64,000 nucleotides of DNA from an uncultured delta proteobacterium (GCA_963815145.1 CAWFFS010000027.1:52737-116736); one strand, 5' to 3'. Shown: positions 36,290 through 55,256, numbered from the stretch's first letter. Numbers and translations are program-made. The notes: generated from the sequence alone by a model not told the origin.

Positions 36290-37800
36290 ATGAAAAAATC
36301 AAAAACCAATTATACTTACTGCCTGATCTGCCGGATAATAATTCCGGCGTTATTAATCATATGCATATCACAATATATCTATGCAGCAGGAAAAGATAAA
36401 AATCAGAAGGCCTGGCTTGCCCGACTTGAAGCCCAGGCGGAGGTTATATGGGGGCCGGACAACACCTGGCTCCCGAGACCCATTTAGTGGTCCAATATGA
36501 ACGGGGTCTGGGTGAACGCAGTATGGTTGATTTGAGAGAGGTAAGGCCTGTGTTCAGATAATTTTAAAGGCTGATGATGATCCCTGGAGGGAAGCGGTCC
36601 TAGCGCATCTTAAACAGGGCGTTGGCAATCTGATCTTCCAGAAACCGGAAGATCCAGTGGAATGATAAAAAATCGGATAAAAAAAACCTGTCCCCTGTTG
36701 TGGCGGATTCCGGGCCAATGGAAATGCCGCCAGGAAAGGGAATAAGAATCTATCTCATTGAAAAAGGAGATTCCCTGTGGAAGATTTCCCGCAGATTTGG
36801 AATGAAAATAGAAGATCTTGTCGGCTAAACAAATTAAACAAAAAAGAAACTTTGCATCCCGGGCAACCGATAAAGGTTCTCGTTTATGCGTCCCACGATC
36901 TAACACTGGATTCCGGGCCTGATAACAGAGCGGATGGCCCATTGCTCCTGGACCAGATACGCATGGCTAGACGGCCGCCCGGTTCAGCCCTGTCAATGGT
37001 GCGGGATTTTGCGGAGGATTACTTGAAAACCATCCGCGAAAATGGGAAAAAATAACTGGTAAAGATGGAATTGAGCGGCTTGCAGTCAGCATTGAATTTA
37101 TCTCGTCTCAAATCATGTGGAAATTCGCGCCAGAAAATTTTACCCCATGGTCCGGAAACAGGCTGAGAAAATAGATGTTGATCCTGCTGTAGTAATGGCA
37201 ATTATTCACACCGAATCCATGTTCAACCCGATGGCAAGATCCAACACCCCTGCCTATGGACTTATGCAGCTTGTCCCGCGATGGAGGAGGCCTTGAGGCA
37301 TACAATGCAATGACTGAAGAGACCCGGAAACTGACACCCAATATCTGTATATCCTGAATAACAATATCGAACTGGGAACTGCGTATTACAAAATTTTGAA
37401 AACTAGATATATGGGGGATATCGATGAACCCGTAAGCCGTAAGATATTGTGCAGTGGCCGCATACAATGCCGGGGCCTCAAATGTTGGTTATGCATTTAT
37501 TTCAACGAAATCTATCAACCAGGCGGCCCCTGGATTAACCGGATGGCACCCCGGAAGGTTTATCAAAGGTCTGATTAAAAAACTTCCTATCCAAAGAGAG
37601 TCGAGACTATGTCCGCAAGGTATTTGACTCGTGTAAAACTTTATCGTGACTGGAAAAGTCTTATCGATAGTCCTCAGATTTTATTTGCCGGAGATGATAA
37701 ATCTGCGATCCGATTTATTTTTTTACGATATCCGGTTCCAATTTATCCATCCGGATCAGTACCTGATCCAGGCAGGAGTCTGCACAAATTAAAATCCCGA
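36290..37800 (+). pseudogene. MltC-like lytic transglycosylase (DUF3393 + LysM + SLT) with multiple frameshifts
   Basis: Pieces in different frames: ERSMVD, LysM-like KGDSLWKISRRFG, MAIIHTESMFNP, AYGLMQLVP, NIELGTAY, AAYNAG; end approximate. Confidence 0.75.
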
Positions 37801-39185
37801 TTCTGCCATGATCAGCATACGGCATGCTTTGCAGTCAAATTCGAGTCTGTAGGTATGTTGCCTGTCACCTATCCTTAAAGGTCCGGCTATCATAGGATTA
37901 TTTTGCCTGTTGGCTGATTTGAGACAGGCATCCAGTTCGTACCGCAGGCAATACCTGGTGGTCATCAGCACCCGGCTGAATTTATTGTTTACAGAGCCAT
38001 CGCTTTCCGATTCAAGGGCCATTTCCCTGACTTCTACCCCGTGTTTTTTATAAAAGGCCAGTGCTTTTGTATTCAGGATATTAGCGCGGTAATCCACCTC
38101 TTTTTCGGGATAGGGTATATTGTTTGTGATAATTGCAGCCTCAGGACGCGGCATGGCAGGGATACGTGCCTGTGTAAGCTGAGTAAGCGCCCTCCGCCTG
38201 ATGTCGTTTATGATGCTCAAGGCAAGAAAACCAGGCTGATCAGGATAGATAGTTACTGACCTTACCCTGTATGGTGTATCCCCTGTCCTCATTAATTGTG
38301 TTTCAATAACAGAGCGTGCACGCTGAGGATTTTGGGCCGGTTGAAATTCGGCCTCCTGTGATATTTCAACAGTGACACCATCTTCATCTTTTACAGTCAA
38401 CCGGATGCCCTTGTCACCCTGGTTGAATATCATCTCAACGTCAATTGCGCGGCAGTGTGCGGAGCCCCTTAAAACACTTAAAAAATCAGTATCCGAATTT
38501 CTGTATAATTCTGTGCCTGCTGTAAGACCGGTCATGGTGTTAGGATAAATTTTGTTGCCTGCCACCCTTTCTACCTTAAATCCTGTAAGTTCACTGTCCC
38601 TGTTGAAAAAACAGATACCATCCCCGTTTCGCAGATCATGGTCCTGAAGCCGGAAAAAATTCCTGCCCGGTTTAACTATCCGGCCTATAAATTTTCCGAT
38701 GGATTTTGGGGTATCCATGGCGGCTATCTTTTCACGTTTCCCTTCAATGAAATATCCGGTAAACCCGCGATTAAATGTTTTTTCAGGATCAGGTTTAAAG
38801 CCAAAGGTACAGGTACCGCTGCTTTCCCTGCGATATTGCGAATGAGCGGCAATATACTCATCAATGACCAGCCTGTAGAGAGCAGTGATATTTTTTACAT
38901 ATTCTATCTCCTTATAGCGGCCTTCTATCTTAAAGGAGGTAACACCGGCAGCTACAAGATCACCTATGGATTCGAGGCGGTTCATATCCTTCAGGGAGAG
39001 AGGGTATTTATTGTCCAGGACAGTTTGATTGCTGCCATTGATAAGGCTGTATTTATGCCGGCATAGCTGGGCACATACCCCACGGTTACCGCTGCGTCCT
39101 GCTGCATACTGACTAAGGTAGCACTGGCCGCTGTATGACACGCACAGGGCACCGTGAACAAATACCTCCAGTTCCACTGATGTTC
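37789..39185 (-). pseudogene. U32 peptidase/RlhA-like gene lacking its N-terminal part
   Basis: ELEVFVHGALCVSYSGQC, RSGNRGVCAQLCR, SFKIEGR, DUF3656-like C-term; homology starts mid-domain at about 39185. Confidence 0.85.
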
Positions 39186-39194
39186 CATAAATAC

Positions 39195-39245
39195 AGGGAT
39201 ATGCCGGATGTATCCGGGCATATAGTGACGCGTTGCCCCGGCCAT
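39195..39245 (-). mobile_element. 5' stub of a RAYT/Y1 HUH transposase (second subtype)
   Basis: MAGATRHYMPGYIRHI resembles the MARxxRHYIPGxxWHI N-termini of this family (recalled, not searched). Confidence 0.55.
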
Positions 39246-39409
39246 GGATTCTTTCTAAAAAGGCTTTATTACCATAAAAACTCAATATAGGTCTATTTTA
39301 TAAGTATGCAGGTTGGGTTAAGCAAAGCAACCCCAAAATATTTCAAATGTCAAATGGACTCCCTAAAACATGGTCGATTTCCTGTGCGCTTGTCAACACA
39401 AGCTTAAGT

Positions 39410-40019: not shown

Positions 40020-40496
40020 TTATTTTCCTTTTTTATTTTTCGCGGCCTGGTATGTGGGGCGCGCGACGCTGGCGATCTTTTCCGGTCGAACAGACGCTTC
40101 CTGGGTGATGCTGGCATCAACGAAGATGAATGGTTTACCCACTCGTTTAACCTCTAATGGACAATGTTTTGTGTGCTTGGGAATGAAGATATAACACGGG
40201 TAGTCGATTTTAATGATCTCATCATCAAGAGTAAATTCGATATCGGCGTCAAGCTCGGCAAAGTTTTCAGAGTCTCCGATGAGATAGACCCATTGATCAA
40301 ATGGATGCGTATGCGTTGGACTGCCCAATATATCGGGTTCAGTGATGCGCGCGAATCCCATTGCCAGAGCGGAATCGTGAATATCAGAAGGACCCAGGCC
40401 GGTAACCAGCGGCGATTTTATCGTATTCAGTATTGATTTCCAGGGACCGAGTTGAATGATATTTGGTTCTCGTTGAATGTTTTCTATTTTTGGCAT
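40020..40496 (-). CDS. Cupin-like hypothetical protein
   Basis: HTHPFDQWVYLIG..CYIFIPKHTKHCPL; probable start MPKIEN. Confidence 0.7.
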   Translation of the reverse strand: MPKIENIQREPNIIQLGPWKSILNTIKSPLVTGLGPSDIHDSALAMGFARITEPDILGSPTHTHPFDQWVYLIGDSENFAELDADIEFTLDDEIIKIDYPCYIFIPKHTKHCPLEVKRVGKPFIFVDASITQEASVRPEKIASVARPTYQAAKNKKGK

Positions 40497-40813
40497 TTGA
40501 GCCTTATCAACCTCCATGTTATTGGTTAATGAAAGGGGGCAAGTCTCGGTTAAAAAATAACAAAAAAGGTTTAACTGAATAAATCTGCTCTTGACTCCCG
40601 GTAGTATCAATAAGCACAAATCGAAAAACCGGGCAGACACAGGGATCTGCCCCTACAAGGTAATGTGGAAGCAACGTGAGTCAGTCCTTCACATTATACA
40701 TGTTCCAGCCAGCATGAAGTATGATCGGGTAAGCCAGTTGTTTTTGATTTATAATTATGTACCCTGCCAGTGGATTAAACTGGCAGGGGTAAAGACCTGG
40801 ACCCCGTTTTACA

Positions 40814-43193
40814 TTATGCCTTTCCAAGGGCTATGAGAACCTTGTCAGGAGTAGCAGGAGGGTCAACCCAGCGTCCTATTGCATTTTGTATGGCACAGAT
40901 AACAAGATGTGTATTGGCAAGCGAATGGCTTATGCCATTGGCCCCGTATGCAGCATTGCCTGCCCGTGTTTCCAGAACTTTCATATCAACGGGGGGCATG
41001 TCCAGCATGGAAACCTTCTTGTATTCATACATATTTGCATTCAGTTTTACTCCTGTCTTTTTATCATAGAAAAAATCTTCAAGGAGCTGGCATCCGGTAC
41101 TGAAATCCATCACCTGGTGAATCTGACTTTCCAGTGAAGTAGGCCGGATTACTTTGCCCGGGTCTGCAACCACTCCAAACCGGAGTATCTCCACTTCCCC
41201 GGTCTCTGTATCTACCGCTACCTCACACATTGCAATATTCATGGTATCGAGATACCTCCCCATACCGGTAGCCCAAAGGGCTGTAGGAGGCCTTCCCTGA
41301 TAGGTGGCAAACAGGTGGGCATTTCCTACAGCCTTTGCAAGAGGCAATGCTTTTTTGGAGTTCGATTTGACGTATACATTACCATCTGCCATGTCAAGGT
41401 CCTCAGGTTTATAACCTTTAAGCGGGCTTGGTGCAGGCTTTTTTGCCGGACCAAAACCAAATCCGGCAGGGGCCGGAGGATTGTCTGCATTTTCAACAGC
41501 AGCTTCCAGTATCCGCTGTTTAAGGATGTTGGCGCACTCCTTTGTAACCCATGCCGAAGCCGTTGTACCGTCGCTTCCACCGCCCACAGGAGCAAAAGGT
41601 TCATTATAGTCAAAGTCAATCTGGACATCTTCGTAATTAAGACCGAGTTCTTCAGCAATGACCATTGCATTCCCTTCAACCGCAAAGATACCGGTACAGC
41701 AGCCCTGGGTTCCCATGCGTACTTTTCCGTTTCTGAGCTCCAGCTTGGAGTGGTAACCCGAAAAGGAATGCCGGGGACACATCTGGTACCGGAAGCTTGT
41801 ACCGTGCATTCTCCCGTCATCGAGTTTTTTATCGCCTGCAGGATGCCATTTCCAGTTCATCAGCTTTTTCCCCTCTTTTACGCATGCCTCATAGCTGGGC
41901 ACAGGATCGGGGTCAGTATAGTCCGATGGACCATGAAGGTTGAGGGTGGCAATATCAACAGGGTCCTTCCCCAGCTTCTCAGCGATAAGCTGTATTGCCA
42001 TGGTCAAAGAATCCCAGTTAAAGGGACCATGCTGTCCGGCAGTATACATCTTGCCCCTGTTGCTGTTTACCGTTTCCATTTCCTGCCTGACGTTCAGACA
42101 CCTTGTTGTATAATAGGGACCATAACTTTGATCGCCGTTGGTGCCGAGTGTTGAAACAGGAGGGGCACCTGCATCGGCAATAGAAAAATCATCGATCGCC
42201 GTGATCAGGCCGTTCTTTTTAAACCCGACCTTCAGATGGCAGAAACGCTGATTCATATTAAAATCGTACATTTCTTTACGTTCCAGCGCCATCCGGACCG
42301 GTCTTCCGACTCTTTTTGAGAGCATAGGTGTGATCTGCTGCACTTTCCGAAAACCCCAGTCACAATATTTACCTCCCTGAAAATAGCCTTCCTGCCTCAC
42401 CTTTTCGGGATCAAGCCCGTACATGGCACCCACGGCATTTTTTCCCTGGGTTGCAGTCCATACTGCCCCCTCAAGACGCAGGCTCTGCTGTTCAGGATTA
42501 TGTCTCGGATCATCATACCAGTATGCGGCAGACGCAAAAGGATTGGGAACATGGCCGGAGAATGCAGGCATGTTGAGATCATATTCAATGATATGATCCG
42601 CGTTCCTGAAACCGGTTTCGATATCACCCCGGTTCACGTTGAAAAAGTTAACATTGCCTTTTGGAGGGGGATTTGGAGTTCCTCCCATGGAAAAACCACC
42701 CTGACTTTTCCTGTTGGGTCTGATGATCGGCGCGTTTTCCTTTCTGCCTTCGCGTATATCAACAACGTGAGGCATGACCTCCCACTTAGGATTAAGAGCC
42801 TTCAATGCTTCATCACACAGGTCTTCTGTTTCAGCAACAACGATCACAGCTACTTCATCGTCTTCCATATCTGCAATTCGGTCTACATAGGGTTCAGAAG
42901 GGCCCTGCCGGGAATCCGAAACTCATCAGGTCCGGGTCTTCCCATGTGATGACATCTATAACACCCGGAATCTTTTTTGCAGCCACAGTGTCAACACTTA
43001 TGACCTCCGCATTTCCATGGGGACTTCTGAGAAACTTTGCATGAAGCATGTCAGGGAAGACGTAGTCAGATCCGAACTTTGCCATACCTGTTGCTAATGA
43101 ATAAGATAACTTGCCGGGAAGGTTTGGTTTCCCTACAACTTTAAACTCTTTTCTCTGTCCGTTTACTCCTGCCAGATCAGCCATACTATACAC
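40814..43193 (-). CDS. Xanthine dehydrogenase/aldehyde oxidoreductase family molybdopterin-binding subunit, one frameshift near 42900
   Basis: ATGMAKFGSD..MLHAKFLRSPH in one frame continues as EVAVIVVAETE, EVAVDTETGEV, DPGKVI in another. Confidence 0.85.
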
Positions 43194-43280: not shown

Positions 43281-43370
43281 GTAGGGTGGGGTTTTATACC
43301 CCACCATGTAGAGACAAGGTATACCTTGTCTCTACAGAAAAACCGGTCGGGAGTAAGTCCCGACCCTACG
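43281..43370. repeat. Cluster of three GTAG-family REPs
   Basis: GTAGGGTGGGG..CCCCACC; GTAGAGACAAGG..CCTTGTCTCTAC; GGTCGGGA..TCCCGACCCTAC. Confidence 0.75.
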
Positions 43371-43410: not shown

Positions 43411-44559
43411 CTAGCCTGTTTTAGAGAACTCGTAATTTCTACCTGTTTCGAGCATGATCCTGAAATTTTCAGGCTTTACATTAGGCGGTACGCAGCAGCC
43501 CGAGCTCAATATAAATCCTCCATCTCCTCCAACCTCATCGATGAGTTTTTTGCAGTAGGCCTCCACATCTTCCGGCTTACTGACAGACAGCAATATGCCG
43601 GAAACATCCCCGCAAAGTGTCTGGTGACCACCTAAAATCTCTTTAGCAAGGAAAATATCGGTAGCACTGTCCAGCTCAAGTGCTACACTGCCTCTCGGCA
43701 ACTTTTTGAAGTACGGGAGATTCTTGTCCCAGCATGTATCCATATGGATAAACGTCACGATGCCTTCTGACCAGAAGGCATCCACTATTTCCTCAAGATA
43801 CGGCCACCAGAATCGTTCAAATATTGATAAAGGATAGTAGTAGTTCGACGCCCTTTCTTCGCCAAGCTGCCACCTTTTTAAACCGGATTTTTTAGCAGCC
43901 GGAAGTTTCTCTGAAATCAGGTCGGCCGTCATTCTTTTCATTGTTTTTTCCACCATGTCCGGTTTAAAATACAAGTCCTTTGTAAATTCAACGAGCGAAC
44001 GCATCATGGAGAGTGCGAAAAAGGGATGGGACCCCATATCAGATACGAGCGGTTCGATTCCTCTTTCAGAACATTGTCTCCCAACTTTATCTGCAGTGAC
44101 TTTTAAATCATTCATCACCCCGGCCACCTCTTCTCGCTTGATATCGCAGATGCGAAAAAGATAATCTTCGTAATAAAAGTTATTAAACCCCATCTCACAG
44201 ATTTTTTCGTAGTCCTCATACTTGAGCACATCCTCTTCCACTGCCTGGACGATTTCGTCTTCCGGTAAATCAATGCCTGGAACCCGTTGCTTCATCGGGT
44301 TGACTCCAACTACCTGAAAAGCAGCAGCTGATAACCCGCCACCAAAAAAGCTGTCCCACCCGCCATATTTGTCGAATACCTGAAAGGATAAATCTGATGC
44401 CAGCGCCATGTCGTTATAAACATTTGCCAGATTATGATAACCCATGAGATTTGCTGCAGCTGCTTCGGATACAAGAGGCGCTACTGGAACACGGTCAGGT
44501 TTTTCCAGTCTTAATGCCGCTTCTACTCTTTCTTTTGGTGACATAGTTTCTTCTGACAT
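43411..44559 (-). CDS. UroD/MtaA-CmuA-fold methyltransferase-like protein
   Basis: KERVEAALRLEKPDRVPV, FIHMD, TLCGDV, GGFILSSGC..PPNVKPEN. Confidence 0.85.
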   Translation of the reverse strand: MSEETMSPKERVEAALRLEKPDRVPVAPLVSEAAAANLMGYHNLANVYNDMALASDLSFQVFDKYGGWDSFFGGGLSAAAFQVVGVNPMKQRVPGIDLPEDEIVQAVEEDVLKYEDYEKICEMGFNNFYYEDYLFRICDIKREEVAGVMNDLKVTADKVGRQCSERGIEPLVSDMGSHPFFALSMMRSLVEFTKDLYFKPDMVEKTMKRMTADLISEKLPAAKKSGLKRWQLGEERASNYYYPLSIFERFWWPYLEEIVDAFWSEGIVTFIHMDTCWDKNLPYFKKLPRGSVALELDSATDIFLAKEILGGHQTLCGDVSGILLSVSKPEDVEAYCKKLIDEVGGDGGFILSSGCCVPPNVKPENFRIMLETGRNYEFSKTG

Positions 44560-44560
44560 A

Positions 44561-45193
44561 TTAATTCTCCTTTATCACGTTCACGCAATACTCTACCCCT
44601 TCCATCGCGTTTTTAGTCTGGAAGTCAGCGCCAACATACGCTTTCACGTCGTCATCAGTCATAGCTCCTCCGATGATGAGCTTTACACTGTCTCTCCGTC
44701 CTGTTTCGATGAGTAAATCGACGGCCTTTTTCATAGTGTCGAATGTCGTAGTGAGGAGTGCCGAAAATCCAACGATCTCCGGCTCGATTTCTTTTATCTT
44801 ATCGACCACCACGGTCGGTTCCACGTCAACACCAAGGTCATATACCTCGAAACCATATGCAGTAAGCAGGGTGGCGACAATATTCTTTCCCAGGTCATGG
44901 ATATCACCTCTCAACGTGGCCAGGACCACCTTGCCTATTCCTTTTTTAGTGCGTTGTTTGTCCAGGTAAGGTTTAAGAATGCTGGTGACTTCTTTGAAAA
45001 TCTCGGCGGACAACATTAACTCAGCAAGAAAATATTTACCTTCCTGATATTTTTTACCTATAATATCCATAGCCTGGCGACATTCATTGAGAATGTGAAG
45101 GGGGTCGTCTCCTCGATCGATATCATTTTTTAGCTGTTTTATAACTTCCTCCAGATTTAACTCCTCAAACACCACGATCAGTTCTTTTGACAT
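44561..45193 (-). CDS. Corrinoid (B12-binding) methyl-acceptor protein
   Basis: YFLAELM cap domain; DxHxxG motif GDIHDLGK, DLGVDV, SALLT, IIGGA. Confidence 0.93.
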   Translation of the reverse strand: MSKELIVVFEELNLEEVIKQLKNDIDRGDDPLHILNECRQAMDIIGKKYQEGKYFLAELMLSAEIFKEVTSILKPYLDKQRTKKGIGKVVLATLRGDIHDLGKNIVATLLTAYGFEVYDLGVDVEPTVVVDKIKEIEPEIVGFSALLTTTFDTMKKAVDLLIETGRRDSVKLIIGGAMTDDDVKAYVGADFQTKNAMEGVEYCVNVIKEN

Positions 45194-45314
45194 TTCATTA
45201 AATCTCCATTCGAGAATAAAATGATTGTGTGAGATCAATTTCGATAACTTTTCATGATCCCTTAAGGGAGTCCCTCTTCACGATTTACAATTCAGATATC
45301 TCAAAGTGAAATTG

Positions 45315-46403
45315 TTAAGTGTTGTAACCATACATTTCAACAGCTTCTCTTACAGCAAAGATGTTGGACAGAGGCATTCTCCAGTCAGGGGTACAATGAG
45401 GAGCAAGTATAAGTCTGTTGGTAGATCCGAGCTTTTCAATGACCTGTCTGGCTTTCTCAATAACCTGTTCAGGTGTGCCTTTCTGAAAGATATCATTAAC
45501 ATACAGAGTCACACCCATAATCACAATATCGGGGTACTTTTCATTAAATCTGACCCAGTAATCAAGATCAAGGGGATGCCCTCCGTTAATACCTATGACC
45601 GGGACACCTTCTTCTGCAAATTTATCTATGGTTTCCTCCCAATATGGTTCAAACCCGCAATTATGAATAACCAGCGGCAATCCGGTTTCTTTCGCGTACC
45701 TTGCAACAAATTGCCCTTCAAATTTCCATGCGTCTTCAAAGCTTAACATTTGCCGGTTAAAGGCATATTGACAATTGAACATTGATTGGGGCTCGCCGCA
45801 AATTTTTCGGAATGCATTATAAAAATCAATGTGTGATTCATAAATTTTTTCACAGAGTTTCAATAAGAGTTCAGGATTACGTTTTGTATCCAAATAGGCC
45901 TGACTGCCTCGAAGCATCTGAACGTTTGACCAGGTAAGGCTGGGTGCAAAAATGGGAGAACACCCGGTTTTTTCAGTAAGAATTGCCGTAGCTTCCAGGA
46001 TGGTTTTTAATGGTTCCATATTCAAATGGTCCGGTATCTGAAGGTTATCAATATCTTCTTCAGTCTTGCAAAGCAGCCCTTCCTGGATATGCGGTGTACG
46101 GTAATCAAACCATACAAACTTATCAGCCTTTCCATTTGCTTTCGCAAAGCCCAGTGCCTCGATCGGCCCCGCATATGGTGGAACTACAGTGTCCAGATTA
46201 TCAGTTCCCAGAACCTCATATGTAGTAAGGCTTGCTTCAGCCAGTTTTTTGGGACTTGATAACATTTCTTTGACAGTAAGGCCTGTAATTCGTGCACCGG
46301 TTGACTCTCCGGATAGAATGGCGAAAGGAATCCTGTCAGAGGCTTCGCCGGTAAAAACGGCTCTCATTCTTTCGTTGGATGCTGCCCAATCATGTTTCAT
46401 CAT
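45315..46403 (-). CDS. UroD/MtaA-CmuA-fold methyltransferase-like protein
   Basis: ERMRAVF..DRIPF, HxC motif VIHNCG, GTPEQV, LILAPHC. Confidence 0.82.
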   Translation of the reverse strand: MMKHDWAASNERMRAVFTGEASDRIPFAILSGESTGARITGLTVKEMLSSPKKLAEASLTTYEVLGTDNLDTVVPPYAGPIEALGFAKANGKADKFVWFDYRTPHIQEGLLCKTEEDIDNLQIPDHLNMEPLKTILEATAILTEKTGCSPIFAPSLTWSNVQMLRGSQAYLDTKRNPELLLKLCEKIYESHIDFYNAFRKICGEPQSMFNCQYAFNRQMLSFEDAWKFEGQFVARYAKETGLPLVIHNCGFEPYWEETIDKFAEEGVPVIGINGGHPLDLDYWVRFNEKYPDIVIMGVTLYVNDIFQKGTPEQVIEKARQVIEKLGSTNRLILAPHCTPDWRMPLSNIFAVREAVEMYGYNT

Positions 46404-46409
46404 TCCCTC

Positions 46410-47048
46410 CTATTTTTTTAATAAGTTTTTGATGGTTTTGATTCCTGCCCAGGCATCTTTACCGTATGCATCAGCTTTCATGGAATCAGCAACTTCTTGA
46501 GAAACAGCAGCACCTCCTACGATTATTTTAGCTTGAACTCCACGTTCTTTAAGTGTGGTAACTGTATCAAACATGCCTGAAACAGTTCCGGACAACAATG
46601 CTGACAAAGCGACAACGTCAGGATTTATTTCGGAAATCTTTTCTAAAAAAGTCTCAGTAGATACATCAACGCCAATATCATGGACCTCAAATCCGTTTCC
46701 TTCCAGCAAAGCGCCTACTATGTTTTTTCCAATGTCATGAATGTCACCCTGGACAGTGCCTAAGACAACTTTGCCTTCTGACTTGATTCCGCTTGCTTTC
46801 ATATAAGGTTCCAGAATGTGAAAAGCAGATTTCATAATTTCCCCGCTATGCATTAATTCCGGTAAAAAATACTCATGCTTTTCAAAGCCGTCACCAATAA
46901 CCTTGATCCCTTCTATAAGGCCTTTGGATATAATTTCCTGTGCCGGTACTTTTTCAGAAATAGCCAGGTTGGTAAGTCTCTCAGCCTCGTCCTGATCAAG
47001 GTTTACGATAGAATTTTTTAATTGGCTAAAGATTTCTTCAGACACCAT
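46410..47048 (-). CDS. Corrinoid (B12-binding) methyl-acceptor protein
   Basis: YFLPELM; GTVQGDIHDIGKNIV, DIGVDV, SALL, IVGGA. Confidence 0.94.
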   Translation of the reverse strand: MVSEEIFSQLKNSIVNLDQDEAERLTNLAISEKVPAQEIISKGLIEGIKVIGDGFEKHEYFLPELMHSGEIMKSAFHILEPYMKASGIKSEGKVVLGTVQGDIHDIGKNIVGALLEGNGFEVHDIGVDVSTETFLEKISEINPDVVALSALLSGTVSGMFDTVTTLKERGVQAKIIVGGAAVSQEVADSMKADAYGKDAWAGIKTIKNLLKK

Positions 47049-47080
47049 AAATCCCCTCCTTTTTAATTGAATGATTAATA

Positions 47081-49486
47081 TTATATGTTTACTTCACTTC
47101 TTGTAATTATTTCATTCTGAAGGTCCTCATAAAGCTCAACAAAATATGCTGAAAAACCTGCAACCCTTACCACGAGATCTTTATAATCATCAGGGTTTGC
47201 CTGTGCCTGTTTTAATGTGTCAGCATCTACGACGTTGTACTGGAGCTGCATTCCCCCCTGTTTGAAAAAGCTCTTAATAAACTGTTTCATCTTTTCGGTT
47301 CCTGCCGCGCCTTCAACTGATGAAGGGTGGAATTTCATATTAAACTGCAGGCCGTTGCTGAAATTTGAAGGATTCAGCGCCAGTACTGATCTTGCAACAC
47401 CTGTGGGTCCGTTTTTTATTGCTCCGCGGGAAGGAGAAGCCGAGTCTGATATGGGCTGACCGTTATGACGCCCGTCAGGCGTTGCCCATGTCTGGTAACC
47501 ATGGAGGACATGTGCACCGGCAGAATATATTCCGGGCCTGTATTTGCCCCGGGAGTTTTCGTATGTGTAGGTTCGGCTGGTGTAAAGATCAGCCACCCAT
47601 GATGCTATTTCATCAGAATATGGATCACCGTTTCCGTAATGGGGAACCTCATTTACAACCTGCTGCCTGAGCAGTTCATAACCTTTCCAGTCGGCCATTA
47701 CTGCAACATAAAGTTCCTTTGCAGTGCATAACTTTTTATCATAAACCATGTACTTGATGGCGGAAAGGCTGTCCACAACAGAGGCAATACCCAGAATCAC
47801 CGTGCCTGTAGAATTATATTTTGCGCCTCCGTGCATCATGTCCCGGCCGTTTTCCATGCAGCCGTCCATTGTGGCGGAAGCCATTGGAACTGGCAGAAGC
47901 TCAAAGGCAATATCACCGACAATCTTATTTACATTGAAATGCCAGTCCATGAAGTATTCAAGCTGCTTTTTAAATGCATCTTTTACCTGTTCAAAGCTTT
48001 CCATTTCATAGAGATACCCGGTCTCAAGACCTCCCTGTTCACTGTTCTGAGGGTTTACGCCGTTATTAATGGCCTGAAGAAGTACATTGATAATATTCAG
48101 GATTCCCTGGGAACAGGGTGAACTCACGTTAGACCATTCACAGCCCGACCCTGAAAGTTCAACACAGCCTATTACGCAGTAATTTCTCGCATCTTCTATC
48201 GCAAGTCCCCGTTTGTGCAGCATGTCGATGATCAGGTCGGCATTTTCAATGCATGGAATCCCGAATACGATCTTTGATGTTTCAATGCCTGCTTCCAGCA
48301 GTTCTTCCGGCGAGTCATCATGAATACCAAGTGACAGGGTAGGGTCATGCAGTTTGAGCCGCGATGCTGACTGGAGACAGAGGAAGCTTGCCTCATTTGT
48401 GGCATCACTTCCATCGGGTTTTCGTCCCCCTATTGTTATGCGAAGGTTATTGGAATAGGAGCCTGCAACCCGTGAAATCATCAGGGGGCCGCTGAAGAAC
48501 AGGTCTGCGGTTTTAATAAAAAAGCAGTCCATAAGTTCCTGGGCTTCATCCATTGTAAGATTTCCTGAGTCCAGATCTGCCTTAAGGTAATCCCCAACAT
48601 GCTGATCAAGACGGCCGATTGTGATACCAAGATAATTGCCTTCTATCAAGAGGATATACTGATAGAGCAGGCATACCTGGAGCGCATCATGAAAATTGCG
48701 GGCAGGATTTTCCATGATCCAGTCAAGGGACTCAGCCATTTTTAAAAGTTCTTCACGGCGTTTAACTTCATTCAGCTTATCTGCCTGGGCACGGCACTCT
48801 TCTGCATAGCGTTTTGCCAGAAGCACAGCTGAATCACAGCTGATGACTACTGCCCTGTAAAAAGATTCTTTCTGAAAATTATCATCTTCAGGTCCGACTT
48901 TTAATTCTTCCAGATATTTCAGGGCCTCCTGCTTTATGGCGCCAAAGCCTTTTTCTACGGCCTTGCGGTAATTTGCATTATAGTGCCCTGCCGGTACTGA
49001 CCCGTTAAATAATGCATTTATACCTGTACCGGTTGTACCGAGCCTGTGGACCTCTTCCGGCATTTTCCCTTTTAATTTTGCAGCAAGGCAGTTCTCCTGC
49101 CAGTAATCTGCAACGGAATGTACATAAGCCCTGTCTTCTTCATCCATGTGCATGAAGCCGTCCCTGACTTCTTTTTTATCAAACATTCCGCTGTCAAGTT
49201 CATCAACCAGCCAACCGATCCCGCCAAATTCCGGCCATAAACAGCACCCGCGAAATTTTTTTGCCATATTGCCAACAAGGAGTTCATTTGGCTCAACCCT
49301 TACAGTCATATTGGCAAGTATTGCATGAAGCGCTTTTGCCTGCCGTAACAGGGGCTCCTCATCATTGTTTTCTTTTGTGAATTCAGTAAGTATTCTTACT
49401 CTTTCGGCATCCAGTGTGGGTATTGTTTCCCTGTACCGATCACGAAGTCCCTGAACCCGCGGATTGACTGGTTTTAATTTAAACAT
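47081..49486 (-). CDS. Glycyl radical enzyme (PFL2/dehydratase-eliminase-like), substrate unknown
   Basis: Cys loop IGCVE; Gly loop RVAGFSAYF; ATPDGR; 801 aa. Confidence 0.92.
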   Translation of the reverse strand: MFKLKPVNPRVQGLRDRYRETIPTLDAERVRILTEFTKENNDEEPLLRQAKALHAILANMTVRVEPNELLVGNMAKKFRGCCLWPEFGGIGWLVDELDSGMFDKKEVRDGFMHMDEEDRAYVHSVADYWQENCLAAKLKGKMPEEVHRLGTTGTGINALFNGSVPAGHYNANYRKAVEKGFGAIKQEALKYLEELKVGPEDDNFQKESFYRAVVISCDSAVLLAKRYAEECRAQADKLNEVKRREELLKMAESLDWIMENPARNFHDALQVCLLYQYILLIEGNYLGITIGRLDQHVGDYLKADLDSGNLTMDEAQELMDCFFIKTADLFFSGPLMISRVAGSYSNNLRITIGGRKPDGSDATNEASFLCLQSASRLKLHDPTLSLGIHDDSPEELLEAGIETSKIVFGIPCIENADLIIDMLHKRGLAIEDARNYCVIGCVELSGSGCEWSNVSSPCSQGILNIINVLLQAINNGVNPQNSEQGGLETGYLYEMESFEQVKDAFKKQLEYFMDWHFNVNKIVGDIAFELLPVPMASATMDGCMENGRDMMHGGAKYNSTGTVILGIASVVDSLSAIKYMVYDKKLCTAKELYVAVMADWKGYELLRQQVVNEVPHYGNGDPYSDEIASWVADLYTSRTYTYENSRGKYRPGIYSAGAHVLHGYQTWATPDGRHNGQPISDSASPSRGAIKNGPTGVARSVLALNPSNFSNGLQFNMKFHPSSVEGAAGTEKMKQFIKSFFKQGGMQLQYNVVDADTLKQAQANPDDYKDLVVRVAGFSAYFVELYEDLQNEIITRSEVNI

Positions 49487-49511
49487 GGCAACCTCTTTTT
49501 ATTAATAAAAT

Positions 49512-49664
49512 TTACCACGGAGGACACGGAGTTCACGGAGAAAAAGCTTTTATGTTATTATAAACAAATCGTTATTTTGTCTTTCTCTGCGTTCTCTGTG
49601 AGTTCTGTGAGAGATATAGTTAGTATTTGTTTTTCTCCGTGTTTTCCGTGCTCTCCGTGGTTAA
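49512..49664. repeat. CACGGAG-type inverted repeat element
   Basis: ACCACGGAGGACACGGAG..CTCCGTGTTTTCCGTGCTCTCCGTGGT; similar element at about 57035-57112. Confidence 0.7.
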
Positions 49665-49775
49665 CAAAAGTAATTTTTATATTTTGCTGCAGTTATGTTT
49701 GCACTAAGTCGACAACATTGGGTGTAACCCGTCTTCGCTAAAGCTGCGTCGTGACAGGAACCTCACCCCAATTTC

Positions 49776-50639
49776 TCAATCTTTAACAGGATATTCACCC
49801 GCCTGTTTTACAATATCACGACGGAAATCCTCAAAGGCCATTCGGGAGGGAGGCACCTCCTGATCATGGGGTATTGAATCATCTATCACCCTGTAGATCT
49901 CACGCAATTCCTCTGTGAAATCAGCATGAGTGATAATGTACTGAGAATTGTTCCGAATACCTTCCACAACCATTGCCCCCAGTTCAACGGGGTCCATGGC
50001 GCCTTCCTTAAAACTTTTTATCAGTTCCTGTGCGTCAGGATCATCTTTAGCTGCATCTATAAGGCGCGTATTTGTGGCGCCCGGGCATAATAACGAAACA
50101 CCTATTCCATGGGGTGCAATCGTGAGCCTTAATCCTTCGGTAAAACCGCGCACTGCGGCCTTTGCAGTCATGTATGCTCCCCCTCCCAGCGGATTCGGGA
50201 CCAGGCTGGCTATAGAACCTGTATTAACAACATGTCCGCCTTCACCTGAGGCTAATATATGGGGGACTATAATCTTGGTTCCATTTACAACGCTTCCAAG
50301 GTTTACACTCATGGCTTTGTCCCAGGCATCAAAGTCAGGGTCTTCAGCGTTTCCGCCTCCGCCGATACCTGCGTTGTTACACAGGACATTGATTTTACCA
50401 AATACCCTGAGAGCTTCATCAGCAGCTGAACGTACCTGTTCCCGGCTGCTTACATCTACCTGCACTACATGCACAGACGGGTTTCCTTCGTGAATCTGGC
50501 GCACTTCATCACAATGATCCGGGTTATAATCAGCTATTACAGCTTTCATACCCAGTTTTAAAAAGTTTTGGACCATCCCATACCCGATACCGCTTGCCCC
50601 GCCTGTAACAAATGCCACACGATCTTTAAAAATTTTCAT
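49776..50639 (-). CDS. SDR-family oxidoreductase
   Basis: TGGASGIG, NNAG, YxxxK (YMTAK). Confidence 0.93.
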   Translation of the reverse strand: MKIFKDRVAFVTGGASGIGYGMVQNFLKLGMKAVIADYNPDHCDEVRQIHEGNPSVHVVQVDVSSREQVRSAADEALRVFGKINVLCNNAGIGGGGNAEDPDFDAWDKAMSVNLGSVVNGTKIIVPHILASGEGGHVVNTGSIASLVPNPLGGGAYMTAKAAVRGFTEGLRLTIAPHGIGVSLLCPGATNTRLIDAAKDDPDAQELIKSFKEGAMDPVELGAMVVEGIRNNSQYIITHADFTEELREIYRVIDDSIPHDQEVPPSRMAFEDFRRDIVKQAGEYPVKD

Positions 50640-50731
50640 ACTTACCTCCTGAAATCCGGGTTTAACTTAACTGTCATGACAGTTTTATTTCTGCACAAAA
50701 GGGTAACATCCTCGATGTTCAGGCTGAAGTG

Positions 50732-51466
50732 TTACCAGGATTCTAAAATCTCAGCATTTTTCATATCGATATCCAGGCTCATTCGGGTACACTCCAGATT
50801 TTTTTTAACAGGTACCTGATGCCATGGATCGAGCTCGGACAAACCGGAATAGCTGCAATTGCCTTCACCATTCCAGATTTCTTTCGGCTTGAACTCGAGT
50901 TCTCCTTTAACCAGCTCCACCAGGGAATAACGGACCTTCGGATCAGGGCTGATGATCACTCTAAGGTTGATGCCTTTAATGTTGATGCTTTCCGGTACCG
51001 GTTCCACAGGGCTGATCTCGCGAAATACCGCTGTAATGAGTCGCAGACCCTGGGGCCGCTCATAGTATATCCCCACTATATCTTCGTGGCGGACAAAACT
51101 GATCTCCCCCACCTTTTTGGGAAAACCAAAGGTTTCCCGCCCTGCCATCAGGGGAATGCTGTGACTTACACCTGCCTGCGTAAAGAAAACACACTCCTCC
51201 CCTTTATATTCTACATCCACAGCCTGTAGAAGCTCCATATACGGCCCTGCTGTAGTCCAGTCATAAGTCGCGCATATCAATCGCGCAGTTGTCGGATTTG
51301 TCAGCGTCAGCTGTTCGGGAACATACTGTGCGACGATTGTCGGATCTGTCTCATAGGTGAATGTGTAATAGGTTGCTCCCCTCCAGTACGGTGGTTTTTC
51401 CACAAAGGCTGGAGCGGTGACCGGCATGGTCCGTCCGAACATTTCTTTTGTAAGTCTTCCTTTCAT
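50732..51466 (-). CDS. Acetoacetate decarboxylase-family protein
   Basis: YETDP..VPEQL, GPYME, AGRETFGFPKK Schiff-base Lys motif, DPWHQVPV. Confidence 0.88.
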   Translation of the reverse strand: MKGRLTKEMFGRTMPVTAPAFVEKPPYWRGATYYTFTYETDPTIVAQYVPEQLTLTNPTTARLICATYDWTTAGPYMELLQAVDVEYKGEECVFFTQAGVSHSIPLMAGRETFGFPKKVGEISFVRHEDIVGIYYERPQGLRLITAVFREISPVEPVPESINIKGINLRVIISPDPKVRYSLVELVKGELEFKPKEIWNGEGNCSYSGLSELDPWHQVPVKKNLECTRMSLDIDMKNAEILESW

Positions 51467-51613
51467 GGGCTTGAATTGTCTCCCTTTATTCTTTAAATAG
51501 TTTTGACATTAACCGGATTATTCTCATGTATCACCCCTCTCCTGGACAACATTGCAGTCATGCGGTTAAGTCTTCTTTAAATTTCAAAATTTCGATTACC
51601 AGGAGTTAATCTC

Positions 51614-51646
51614 ACTTACTAAGTTAGCTTGACTAACTTAGTAAGT
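51614..51646. promoter_or_regulatory. Palindromic operator (probable TetR site) overlapping a minus-strand promoter
   Basis: ACTTACTAAGTTAG-N5-CTAACTTAGTAAGT perfect IR; TTGACA on the minus strand at 51659-51664. Confidence 0.7.
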
Positions 51647-52090
51647 TCTGCTAACTCTTGTCAATCACTTTTACAATCATGGCGTAAATTTATTTTCGAA
51701 TATATTATAATGTCAAATTTACTCCTTTTATTGTGCAGGTAAATCATGGCGATTTTATTGAGAAGTGCAAAGTCTAATAACTCGTCGCTTGCGGCGGTCA
51801 AAATAGATTTAATCAATAATTGATACCCCGTTGCTTGCTGCAGGGTTGTTCATTGAAATGACATCCTGATAGGAAAACCAATTGAAGGAATTAATCTATT
51901 AATGTAAATATATAGATAGAGCCAGTTTCTAAACGCTCGATTTTAAGCAATATCTGTGTCAGACTCAAATTATAATCCCCAAAATACTATGTGTATTCCT
52001 GTGGTTATAATTTTTGTCTTCCTTGATCTTGCTCAAACTTAAACGTTTTGAAACCACCTCGATAAATTAATAAAATAAAAAAAGAGAATA

Positions 52091-52696
52091 ATGATAATGA
52101 AATCTTACAGATCTATTCGAAGGGAACAGACAAAGGAAAAAATAATTTCGGAAGCAATAAACAGCATCAATGAGTCCGGCCTTGAAAACCTGAATTTTAA
52201 ACGCATTGCACAAAATCTTAATTATTCATCAACAGCCTTGTATAAATATTTTAAAAACAAACAGGAACTTATAGATGAAGTAAAGATTGAAGGCGAAAAA
52301 AGGGCAATTGAATACGTTTTTAAAAAAAAGCAAAAAGATCTTGAGGCGGATGAATTACTTTTTGAAGTAACCAATAGACTGCTCAAGTGGGCCAAAAATA
52401 ATGCTAATCTTTTTATGGTCACATACGCCAACAAAAAAGAATCCCCATCTTCGGACAAAAGGTCCGGTGAAAACAGTCCGATGTTTAATAAATTTTCTGA
52501 AATTATTAAAGAGCGTTTTGAAGAAGGTGACTTAAAACTTCCGGATGATTTCTCATTCAGTTCTTTTCTTACAATGCTGATATATTTGATTTACGGTATA
52601 TCAATAGCACGTGTTGTTTTTGATACTGATGTTCCGACAAAATTCGATAAAAATATTTCCTTGATGTTAAAATCTCTTTATAAAATGTTTGTTTAA
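52091..52696 (+). CDS. TetR/AcrR-family regulator
   Basis: HTH IAQNLNYSSTALYKYFKNKQEL; divergent from the GRE cluster. Confidence 0.9.
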   Translation: MIMKSYRSIRREQTKEKIISEAINSINESGLENLNFKRIAQNLNYSSTALYKYFKNKQELIDEVKIEGEKRAIEYVFKKKQKDLEADELLFEVTNRLLKWAKNNANLFMVTYANKKESPSSDKRSGENSPMFNKFSEIIKERFEEGDLKLPDDFSFSSFLTMLIYLIYGISIARVVFDTDVPTKFDKNISLMLKSLYKMFV

Positions 52697-53966: not shown

Positions 53967-54208
53967 CTGTCAGCTATCCCTTGCCTGAATATGATCTTCC
54001 CCGGCTGATGAAGCGACGAATATAAGCTCATCATCCTGCGAGGTCAAGTGCGAATCCATTGGAAATGAAAGTATTATTGAAATAAGTAAAAAAATCAACT
54101 AACCTTTAATATGATCTGAGCGTGTCAAAAAGACACACGCTGCTTAATAAGTAATGCCTGCCAAATATATTCCACCGCCTGTTAACAGTGGATGAAAGGA
54201 TAGATAAT

Positions 54209-55256
54209 ATGAGTGACAGGACCATAGATTTGAGGAGTGACACGGTTACGAAACCAACACAGGCCATGCGTAAAGCAATGGCCGAAGCGGAAGTAGGCGA
54301 TGATGTCCTTGGAGACGATCCGACAGTAAAGGAGCTGGAGCGACGCACTGAAGAGATCCTTGGCAAGGATGCCGCGGTCTTTGTCCCGTCAGGAACCATG
54401 GCGAATCAGCTGGCACTCCGCTGCCAGACGCAGCACGGCGATGAAATACTGCTCGATGCCAACGCCCATATCTACTGGTACGAAGCCGGTGCATCGGCAG
54501 CACTGTCAGGAGTGATTTGCCGTACTTTGCCGGGAGTGCGCGGGGATATTCTCATCATCCGACGTTCGTACCGCGCTTCGCCCTAAGACATACATTTTCC
54601 ACGGACACGACTGCTTGCAATAGAGAATACGCATAACAGGGGCGGCGGAGCGATCTGGACGCTGGAACAGATACAGGAGGTATGCAGCGTTGCCCGCGAA
54701 GCAGGCATTCGCATCCATCTTGACGGGGCTCGATTATGGAATGCGTCGGTGGCTACAGGAATCCCGGAATCGGAGTATGCCAAGGACTTTGACAGTGTGA
54801 GCGTTTGCTTCTCCAAGGGCCTGGGAGCCCCAGTGGGATCGGCACTCGCTGGAGAGCGCAGAACTTGCGGAAAAAGCCCGTCGTTTCCGAAAGCAGTTTG
54901 GCGGCGGGATGCGGCAATCTGGAATAATCGCGGCCGGTGCGCTAAATGCATTGGAAAACCATCGCGATCGGCTGGCTGATGACCACTCAAACGCGAAACA
55001 ACTCGCGTCAGGGTTGAGCGAGATTCCAGGGATCAGTGTCAACTGCGGCACGATTGACACAAATATGGTTTATTTCGATGTCGGGTACCCTTCTGCTATG
55101 GAATTAACCGGATTATTGAAGGAAATGAACGTACTGGTTTCGCCTACAGGTGAACACACGATCCGTGCTGTGACAAGCCTTGCCGTGGATGCCGATGATA
55201 TCCTCCGGGCAGTCGATGCTGTACGGGACATCATGTCCGTATCACCAGTGCGATAG
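54209..55256 (+). pseudogene. ltaE: Low-specificity L-threonine aldolase with three frameshifts
   Basis: [51 protein letters not shown]; shifts near 54543, 54586 and 54855. Confidence 0.85.

Follow-up and report, generated by a model that had tools for sequence, protein, structure and literature searches.

Glycyl radical enzyme of an uncharacterised clade beside two corrinoid-protein/methyltransferase cassettes in an uncultured delta proteobacterium

Gene content and control signals of the locus

We analysed a stretch of 64,000 nucleotides (hereafter the window; GCA_963815145.1 CAWFFS010000027.1:52737-116736, i.e. contig C27:52737-116736) from an uncultured delta proteobacterium, the genome of which comprises 5.94 Mb in 29 contigs and is 89.7% complete. 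Contigs of this genome have names starting with C, whereas the comparison loci that were fetched have names starting with L. The cluster under study consists of seven co-oriented genes, coding for a protein of the acetoacetate decarboxylase family (ADC-like), a short-chain dehydrogenase/reductase (SDR), a glycyl radical enzyme (GRE) and two pairs of a corrinoid protein with a URO-D-fold methyltransferase (CP1-MT1 and CP2-MT2), and is accompanied by a divergent gene for a TetR-family regulator (Table 1). Among all loci examined, radical elimination and B12-dependent demethylation are joined only in this genome.

Genes were called from a listing of open reading frames (ORFs) together with Pfam and NCBIfam scans of the window; in the five sets of fetched loci, the Pfam-scanned ORFs numbered 64 of 82, 69 of 118, 51 of 79, 43 of 66 and 27 of 33. 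These calls agree with a preliminary description of the same DNA, which had reported the seven co-oriented genes with the divergent TetR gene, and its two sequence details (a single-cysteine GCVE loop in the GRE and a perfect 14-bp inverted repeat near the TetR gene) were found as described: the loop reads G440-C441-V-E443 and the repeat lies at 51614-51646. The intergenic gaps measure 92 nt (ADC-SDR), 289 nt (SDR-GRE), 32 nt (GRE-CP1), 6 nt (CP1-MT1), 76 nt (MT1-CP2) and 1 nt (CP2-MT2).

The inverted repeat consists of ACTTACTAAGTTAG, 5 nt and CTAACTTAGTAAGT, with perfect arms of 14 nt. The paired site was found once in the 5.94-Mb genome when one mismatch per half-site was allowed. A TetR_N helix-turn-helix domain and a unique palindrome between divergent genes are both present, and the repeat is a candidate operator to which the TetR protein would bind. 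The promoter match next to it is weak, because the promoter-like matches in the region (13) do not exceed those in shuffled sequences (mean 16.9). The only strong terminator-like site is found after MT2, and the GRE-CP1 gap contains a ribosome-binding-like AGGAGG and no terminator-like site. A single transcript running from the ADC-like gene to MT2 is possible.

The SDR-GRE spacer folds at -80.3 kcal/mol (z = -5.3), which none of 200 shuffles equalled, and contains a weak terminator-like call (49529-49515). The hairpin arms are also found at four other places in the genome, with short copies at C27:600035-601888, C7:44834-44861 and C15:83320-83353. A search of the spacer against Rfam returned only chance matches to hairpin-like miRNAs and no family that explains the hairpin; over the whole window no Rfam family reached its gathering score, so that no cobalamin riboswitch was detected. 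The hairpin could act as an attenuator or be one copy of a small palindromic repeat.

Table 1. Positions of the genes, motifs and signals discussed (numbered in the window unless a locus or contig is named)
Feature	Position	Strand	Remarks
TetR-family regulator, divergent from the cluster	52091-52696	+	PF00440 39 bits
Sigma-70-like promoter match (TTGACA, 18 nt, TAAATT)	51687-51716	-	just upstream of the inverted repeat
ADC-like protein, 244 aa	50732-51466	-	PF06314 145 bits
Classical SDR, 287 aa	49776-50639	-	Pfam/NCBIfam scan
Long imperfect hairpin, CACGGAG-type arms, then U-rich run	49510-49661	-	fold of the SDR-GRE spacer
GRE, 801 aa, CXE type	47081-49486	-	PF02901 (PFL-like) 562 bits, PF01228 (Gly_radical) 98 bits
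GRE catalytic residues Cys441; Gly777	48164-48166; 47156-47158	-	
Corrinoid protein CP1, 212 aa	46410-47048	-	B12-binding and B12-binding_2 domains, DIHDIG
URO-D-fold methyltransferase MT1, 362 aa	45315-46403	-	PF01208 85 bits
Corrinoid protein CP2, 225 aa	44561-45238	-	B12-binding and B12-binding_2 domains, DIHDLG
URO-D-fold methyltransferase MT2, 382 aa	43411-44559	-	PF01208 98 bits
Terminator-like hairpin (8 pairs, 6 G-C, then T run)	43345-43365	-	after MT2
XDH-family (xanthine dehydrogenase) molybdenum subunit, two frames (99 aa + 684 aa)	40814-43193	-	ORFs, Pfam/NCBIfam
Cupin-like protein copies	40020-40640; L009:2466-2792; own genome C11:335207-335539		near GRE genes
UGSC selenoprotein (109 aa, in-frame TGA, 448 aa)	L010:11732-13456; own genome C7:273825-275546	- (L010)	beside the GRE clade in several genomes

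The glycyl radical enzyme and its partners

Besides the GCVE loop, the GRE has the glycine-radical motif RVAG777F, in agreement with the RVxG required in the GRE superfamily. Residues H168, C441, E443 and G777 are invariant in the alignment of 37 clade members (the query plus 36 of the 120 listed matches), and so is the block GCVExSGSGC, which includes a second cysteine (C449). GCVE at 440-443 is an instance of the CXE sequence that marks the 1,2-eliminase/isomerase class. According to a June 2026 review (PMC13450708), all characterised GRE eliminases and isomerases retain CXE; the classes concerned are the glycerol/propanediol dehydratases, HypD, HpyG/HpzG, HpfG, CutC, IslA/IseG and HpsG, along with HplG, YbiW and PflD, and entire GRE clades are still without a validated function.

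None of the NCBIfam equivalogs is reached by the window GRE (HypD 522 bits against a cut-off of 1100, HpfG 513 and HpsG 510 against 1000, CutC 475 against 1050), nor is the generic PFL2/glycerol dehydratase subfamily TIGR01774 (559 bits against 678). The best relative with a solved structure is the B12-independent glycerol dehydratase 1r8w (468 bits), a diol dehydratase scores 432 bits, and all characterised eliminases and isomerases with solved structures stay at or below 468 bits. In the alignment to the dehydratases the His of GVGH is kept, and the GHS and HD positions, which we take to be substrate-binding residues, read YLG and CS. Pyruvate formate-lyase was rejected as an identity: the GRE has a single Cys rather than Cys-Cys and scores 120 bits on TIGR01255 (cut-off 994).

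With GCVE and RVAGF present and no equivalog reached, the GRE falls in an uncharacterised clade of the CXE-type eliminases/isomerases. It shares with that class the PFL-like fold, the glycine-radical motif and the single Cys followed by Glu two residues on, but it remains below every equivalog cut-off, differs at the GHS and HD positions and lacks an adjacent activase. Judged by its motifs, it is a new, uncharacterised member of a known mechanistic class.

No GRE activase is encoded within the window, and the activases of the genome are located on other contigs. Two intact ones (C10:177896 and C10:385150, each beside other GREs) face six intact GRE genes. An adjacent activase was seen in five relatives that are 50-64% identical (L036, L039, L040, L044 and L209). 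Elsewhere in the genome (C13:45229-48591) a GRE gene and an activase gene are both broken by stops and frame changes. On C10, one GRE-activase pair has a URO-D-family gene (L019:12350-13339) at a distance of 2.5 kb, with no corrinoid-protein gene next to it; the GRE concerned is 44% identical to that of the window, and the URO-D-family gene adjoins nitroreductase and MFS genes.

For the neighbourhood comparison, 149 loci with GRE relatives (5 genome, 69 metagenome and 75 further genome loci) were tabulated against the window proteins; in 47 of them the GRE is at least 50% identical, and many of these 47 are short contigs. Relatives in other genomes reach 84-87% identity to the window GRE, and its own genome has a paralog with 78% identity (C7:262476-264878). 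In a quick tree (38 rows, with SH-aLRT support) these two copies fall into sister subclades, that of the window together with L009 (a Desulfatiglandales record), P0001, P0002 and P0016 and that of C7 together with L010, P0015 and P0004. No GRE copy above 46% identity was present in 400 other genomes sampled from the phylum. Eight loci combine a GRE at least 70% identical with usable flanks (L009, L010, L011, L012, L196, L206, L213 and C7 of the own genome). More distant relatives adjoin XDH-family, U32, peptide-type ABC transporter or TRAP transporter genes.

Orthologs of the window SDR (74-76% identical) are found beside the GRE in L010, L196 and L206, which span both sister subclades. A selenoprotein with a UGSC domain is present in six of the eight loci (L009, L012, L010, L196, L206 and C7, in the last at a distance of 9 kb); when its in-frame TGA is read as selenocysteine, the Pfam UGSC match spans that codon. 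The dependable partners of the GRE are the SDR and the selenoprotein, not the corrinoid proteins. A tblastn search of the own genome with the C-terminal part of the selenoprotein gave 28 matches, some of them beside other GRE or URO-D-like genes.

Furthermore, L010, L206 and C7 share a gene set consisting of a pyruvate-carboxylase-B-like carboxyltransferase/BCCP, a biotin carboxylase, an HMG-CoA-synthase-like/DUF35 protein, a thiolase and the GRE. This set is followed, in L010 and L206, by a convergent block that codes for the UGSC selenoprotein, the SDR, subunits A and B of a 3-oxoacid CoA-transferase and a TetR regulator. The CoA-transferase and thiolase assignments in this operon are above their cut-offs (TIGR02429, 243 bits against 128.5; NF004810, 558 against 403). 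The C7 locus has the same convergent block, but with 24 nt in place of the SDR. The window SDR is the only ortholog in its genome (the next match is 39% identical), and this, together with the missing SDR in C7, ties the SDR-GRE pair of the window to the conserved module. The data suggest a shared beta-keto-acid node, for which one locus would use a CoA-transferase and a thiolase and the other an ADC-like enzyme.

Among solved structures, the SDR matches 3ioy (an unnamed SDR, 176 bits) and three entries named 'C alpha-dehydrogenase' (4yae with 175, 4ya6 with 173 and 4y98 with 133 bits), and the next SDR scores 118 bits. We take the three entries to be LigD/LigL/LigO-type enzymes of the Sphingobium beta-aryl-ether pathway. 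They are the best-scoring characterised relatives of the window SDR, and the matches cover about 250 residues and take in the C-terminal extension. Nonetheless, identity is about 40% (by eye), the host is an anaerobe and no genes for a glutathione-dependent etherase were seen.

The ADC-like protein covers the full length of the Pfam ADC family and keeps the Schiff-base lysine pair FPKK, aligned with PKK of 3bh2 and 3bgt, but it reaches only 53-59 bits to the solved acetoacetate decarboxylases (3bh2, 3bgt and 3c8w). Relatives with 33-40% identity occur in 6 of the 400 other genomes, none of them near a GRE or a cassette. A literature search yielded nothing useful that joins GREs with acetoacetate decarboxylase, or with biotin carboxylase, thiolase and DUF35.

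Corrinoid-protein/methyltransferase cassettes

Both corrinoid proteins have the DxHxxG motif within the B12-binding and B12-binding_2 domains, at 177 and 161 bits on TIGR02370 (cut-off 215). The methyltransferases are likewise below the cut-off of the MtaA/CmuA model TIGR01463 (38 and 42 bits against 235). MtaA/CmuA methyltransferases have an HxC...C zinc motif. In MT1, H247-x-C249 and C337 are invariant in 29 sequences, and MT1 is probably a substrate:corrinoid methyltransferase; the HxC motif is absent from MT2. No solved relative of MT1 was found at E <= 0.001, and the only one of MT2 is CdmB of Acetobacterium (47 bits).

A scan of genome contigs with the single MT1 protein came back empty, while an alignment query gave 64 loci with relatives that are 39-73% identical. 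Their hosts include delta-proteobacterial/Thermodesulfobacteriota records, Dehalococcoidales, Candidatus Formimonas warabiya and many Asgard archaea. In 58 of the 64 loci a CP1-like gene lies directly upstream of the MT1 relative, most of the six exceptions being at contig edges, and in L104, L111 and L116 the pair is followed by a gene for a pterin-binding methyltransferase. None of these loci has a related GRE, ADC or MT2 gene. MT2 relatives (E <= 1e-60) were found in 14 of the 400 other genomes of the phylum sample; CP2 adjoins the MT2 relative or lies within 4 kb in eight of ten fetched loci, none of which has a GRE. Each pair is, in other words, an autonomous two-gene cassette.

With a DxHxxG corrinoid protein beside a URO-D-fold methyltransferase, the cassettes resemble three-component corrinoid methyltransferase systems, such as bacterial O-demethylases and the CdmBCA system for chloromethane, which comprise methyltransferase I, a corrinoid protein, methyltransferase II and a reductive activase. 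The difference is that the window contains no methyltransferase II and no activase, both of which are on other contigs. Genes for pterin-binding proteins and RACo-type activases stand beside corrinoid-protein genes at C15:413268-416777 and C26:4377-7783, so that the window cassettes can be served in trans.

The preliminary description had proposed an undescribed anaerobic pathway that couples radical cleavage with B12-dependent demethylation. The coupling, as a conserved trait, is not supported: genes like MT1, MT2 and the ADC-like gene are present in none of the 149 GRE-relative loci and a corrinoid-protein gene in only one (L051, with a GRE 45% identical). Conversely, a related GRE occurs in 0 of the 64 MT1 loci and 0 of the 10 MT2 loci (one MT1 locus has a GRE-like match of 25% identity at 8 kb). 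What stands is the observation that a CXE-type GRE without characterised close kin is closely followed by corrinoid and methyltransferase genes. The same description had made its reading depend on two points, of which one went its way and the other did not: the GRE lies outside every characterised group tested (by NCBIfam cut-offs and solved structures), and the corrinoid genes are not conserved beside the orthologs. A search of the literature found no publication that links a GRE to a corrinoid methyltransferase operon, and the GRE review (PMC13450708) contains no mention of corrinoid, ether, lignin, methyltransferase or acetone.

Interpretation of the cluster

Our best explanation, put forward tentatively and with somewhat less than even confidence, is that the cluster is a mosaic: a GRE-SDR core feeds a beta-keto-acid step, demethylase cassettes have been appended to it, and the pairing of GRE and methyltransferases is local rather than a conserved pathway. 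As the combination was seen in no other genome examined, it looks like a one-off assembly. Extrapolating from motifs and gene order, the Cys441 thiyl radical would abstract a hydrogen from the carbinol carbon and Glu443 would take the proton from the hydroxyl, upon which a neighbouring leaving group would be expelled to give a carbonyl product. The SDR would interconvert the beta-hydroxy and beta-oxo groups. In the window cluster the ADC-like protein would decarboxylate the beta-keto acid, whereas in the sister clade the 3-oxoacid CoA-transferase would activate it and the thiolase would then split it. The cassettes would probably demethylate a methoxy, methylthio or methylammonium compound, the methyl group passing to tetrahydrofolate with the help of a pterin-binding methyltransferase and of an activase that are encoded in other parts of the genome. 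By binding the unique palindrome, TetR would govern ADC-SDR at the least, and the modules are possibly co-regulated and possibly serve one methylated substrate.

Several observations weigh against this explanation. Of the eight loci in which usable flanks surround a GRE with at least 70% identity, only three show the link with the SDR; L009 and L012, being near-duplicates, do not count as independent; and the neighbourhoods of most GRE relatives of 50-87% identity are unrelated, with mobile elements in L011, a string of ribosomal-protein genes in L032 and genes for HDOD proteins in L028, L029 and L033. No activase is located within 10 kb of any GRE that is at least 70% identical, which means that one from another contig is required. 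The ADC-like protein scores 76 bits on the NCBIfam acetoacetate decarboxylase model (NF002614, cut-off 150), its alignment has no match to Arg29 and Glu61, presumably the active-site residues of the clostridial enzyme, and it may not be a decarboxylase. Finally, given the strong hairpin with its U-rich tail, ADC-SDR and GRE-CP-MT may be separate transcription units, and TetR control may be limited to the former.

The strongest rival, which we nevertheless rate as rather unlikely, is mere juxtaposition: the cassettes would have landed between the GRE and the XDH gene and serve an unrelated methylotrophic substrate, with GRE-SDR acting on a different compound. The mutual absence of the two gene groups from the GRE, MT1 and MT2 loci counts in its favour, as does base composition. 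GC content ranges from 39.6% for CP1, the lowest of the cluster genes, to 48.8% for ADC (31.5% for TetR, 43.4% for the genome), and both GC and GC at third codon positions (GC3) are lower in CP1 and MT1 than in ADC, SDR and GRE. In addition, a sigma-70-like match (ATTACA, 16 nt, TATAAT) overlaps the 3' end of the GRE gene just before CP1.

The gene downstream of the cluster can be cited for the same view and, like the spread in GC content, for the mosaic as well. The XDH-family gene of the window is split over two frames, which could stem from a frameshift or an assembly indel or mark a pseudogene (a paralog at C27:7955-10355 likewise aligns in out-of-frame pieces). An intact counterpart of 792 aa, 63-70% identical, is found in L216, where it follows a GRE of 54% identity with only a 2Fe-2S gene in between; an FAD subunit, an SDR and a peptide-type ABC transporter are further neighbours. 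L240 has two intact XDH-family copies and a U32 gene near a GRE of 46% identity, and the window too has a U32 gene. The XDH-family gene is possibly part of the older neighbourhood of the GRE, and the 3.7-kb cassette block between the two in the window fits an insertion of the cassettes. Against juxtaposition speak the GRE-CP1 gap of merely 32 nt with its AGGAGG, the lack of a strong terminator before the end of MT2, and the fact that promoter-like matches, such as the one before CP1, do not exceed shuffles. Moreover, catabolic operons are often built from cassettes that act on one substrate class.

We consider it unlikely that the cluster forms an integrated pathway for a methylated, hydroxylated substrate, or in its specific version for methoxylated aryl-C3 lignin fragments. 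In that version the GRE would expel a beta-aryloxy or hydroxyl group adjacent to a carbinol, and the SDR would have the role of a C-alpha dehydrogenase; decarboxylation of an aroylacetate would fall to the ADC-like protein, and O-demethylation of guaiacyl/syringyl rings to the cassettes. The SDR scores on the 'C alpha-dehydrogenase' entries, two of them nearly equal to the top match, point this way, and the sister-clade operon (biotin carboxylase, CoA-transferase, thiolase/DUF35) resembles what we take to be aryl-ketone carboxylation routes. Close relatives of the GRE are found in records with Desulfatiglandales or Desulfatiglans in their titles, and a URO-D-fold methyltransferase plus a corrinoid protein is the layout of bacterial O-demethylases (PMC9768040).

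Nonetheless, the association is conserved nowhere else among the loci examined, an identity of about 40% to C-alpha dehydrogenases fixes no substrate, and MT1 and MT2 are without a characterised close relative. The Pfam scan shows no aromatic-ring genes in the window, and the XDH-family, U32 and transporter genes next to distant GRE relatives point elsewhere. Literature searches found nothing that joins glycyl radical, aryl ether, lignin and anaerobic, and nothing relevant on ether cleavage among the matches listed. The boldest proposal, in which the GRE clade as a whole is an anaerobic radical eliminase for arylglycerol/beta-aryl-ether lignin fragments that abstracts a hydrogen beside a hydroxyl and expels the adjacent aryloxy or hydroxyl group, with a LigD-like SDR, a beta-keto-acid step and, at this locus, dedicated corrinoid O-demethylases, is very doubtful.

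Slightly more improbable still is an orphan GRE copy that is silent or without function. The window has no activase, the genome has fewer intact activases than intact GREs, and the C13 pair is broken. However, the reading frame is intact with all catalytic motifs kept, identity to relatives in other genomes amounts to 84-87%, and the key residues are invariant throughout the clade. Since the whole clade at 70% identity or above is without adjacent activases, an activase encoded in trans looks like the rule. An ordinary glycerol/1,2-propanediol dehydratase in a diol-utilisation locus is the least credible option: these enzymes are the best solved matches and the GVGH His is kept, but TIGR01774 is missed, the presumed substrate-binding positions differ, and no activase, microcompartment or 1,3-propanediol dehydrogenase gene is nearby.

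Whichever of these holds, the analysis defines one GRE clade without an assigned function together with partners that can be tested (the SDR, the UGSC selenoprotein and the beta-keto-acid enzymes). It also delineates two subfamilies of corrinoid proteins with URO-D-fold methyltransferases that travel as self-contained cassettes, one of them common to sulfate-reducer-like bacteria and Asgard archaea. If both modules served one substrate, this would be an undescribed anaerobic route for the breakdown of a methylated, hydroxylated compound, and the lignin version, if true, would provide an oxygen-free equivalent of the beta-etherase pathway known from sphingomonads. If the modules are unrelated, the locus is a warning against reading pathways from a single neighbourhood.

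Some further observations concern the surroundings. On the metagenome contig with the ribosomal-protein genes (L032:1341-6221), a GRE of 61% identity is placed between rplK and rplJ, where rplA is expected, in the string secE-nusG-rplK ... rplJ-rplL-rpoB. A small cupin-like protein without a Pfam match, with copies 31-33% identical, occurs within a few kb of GRE genes at three places (Table 1). The U32-family protein of the window (37789-39285) is apparently truncated, its Pfam match beginning at profile position 82, and so is a beta-eliminating lyase fragment of 132 aa at 54188-54586. Finally, positions 10000-31700 form a low-GC island (32-38%) with NERD, HNH, UvrD-like helicase, Vsr and C5 DNA methylase genes, a HEF_HK kinase with a response-receiver protein, a DDE transposase and a SNF2 helicase, which looks like a defence or mobile island.

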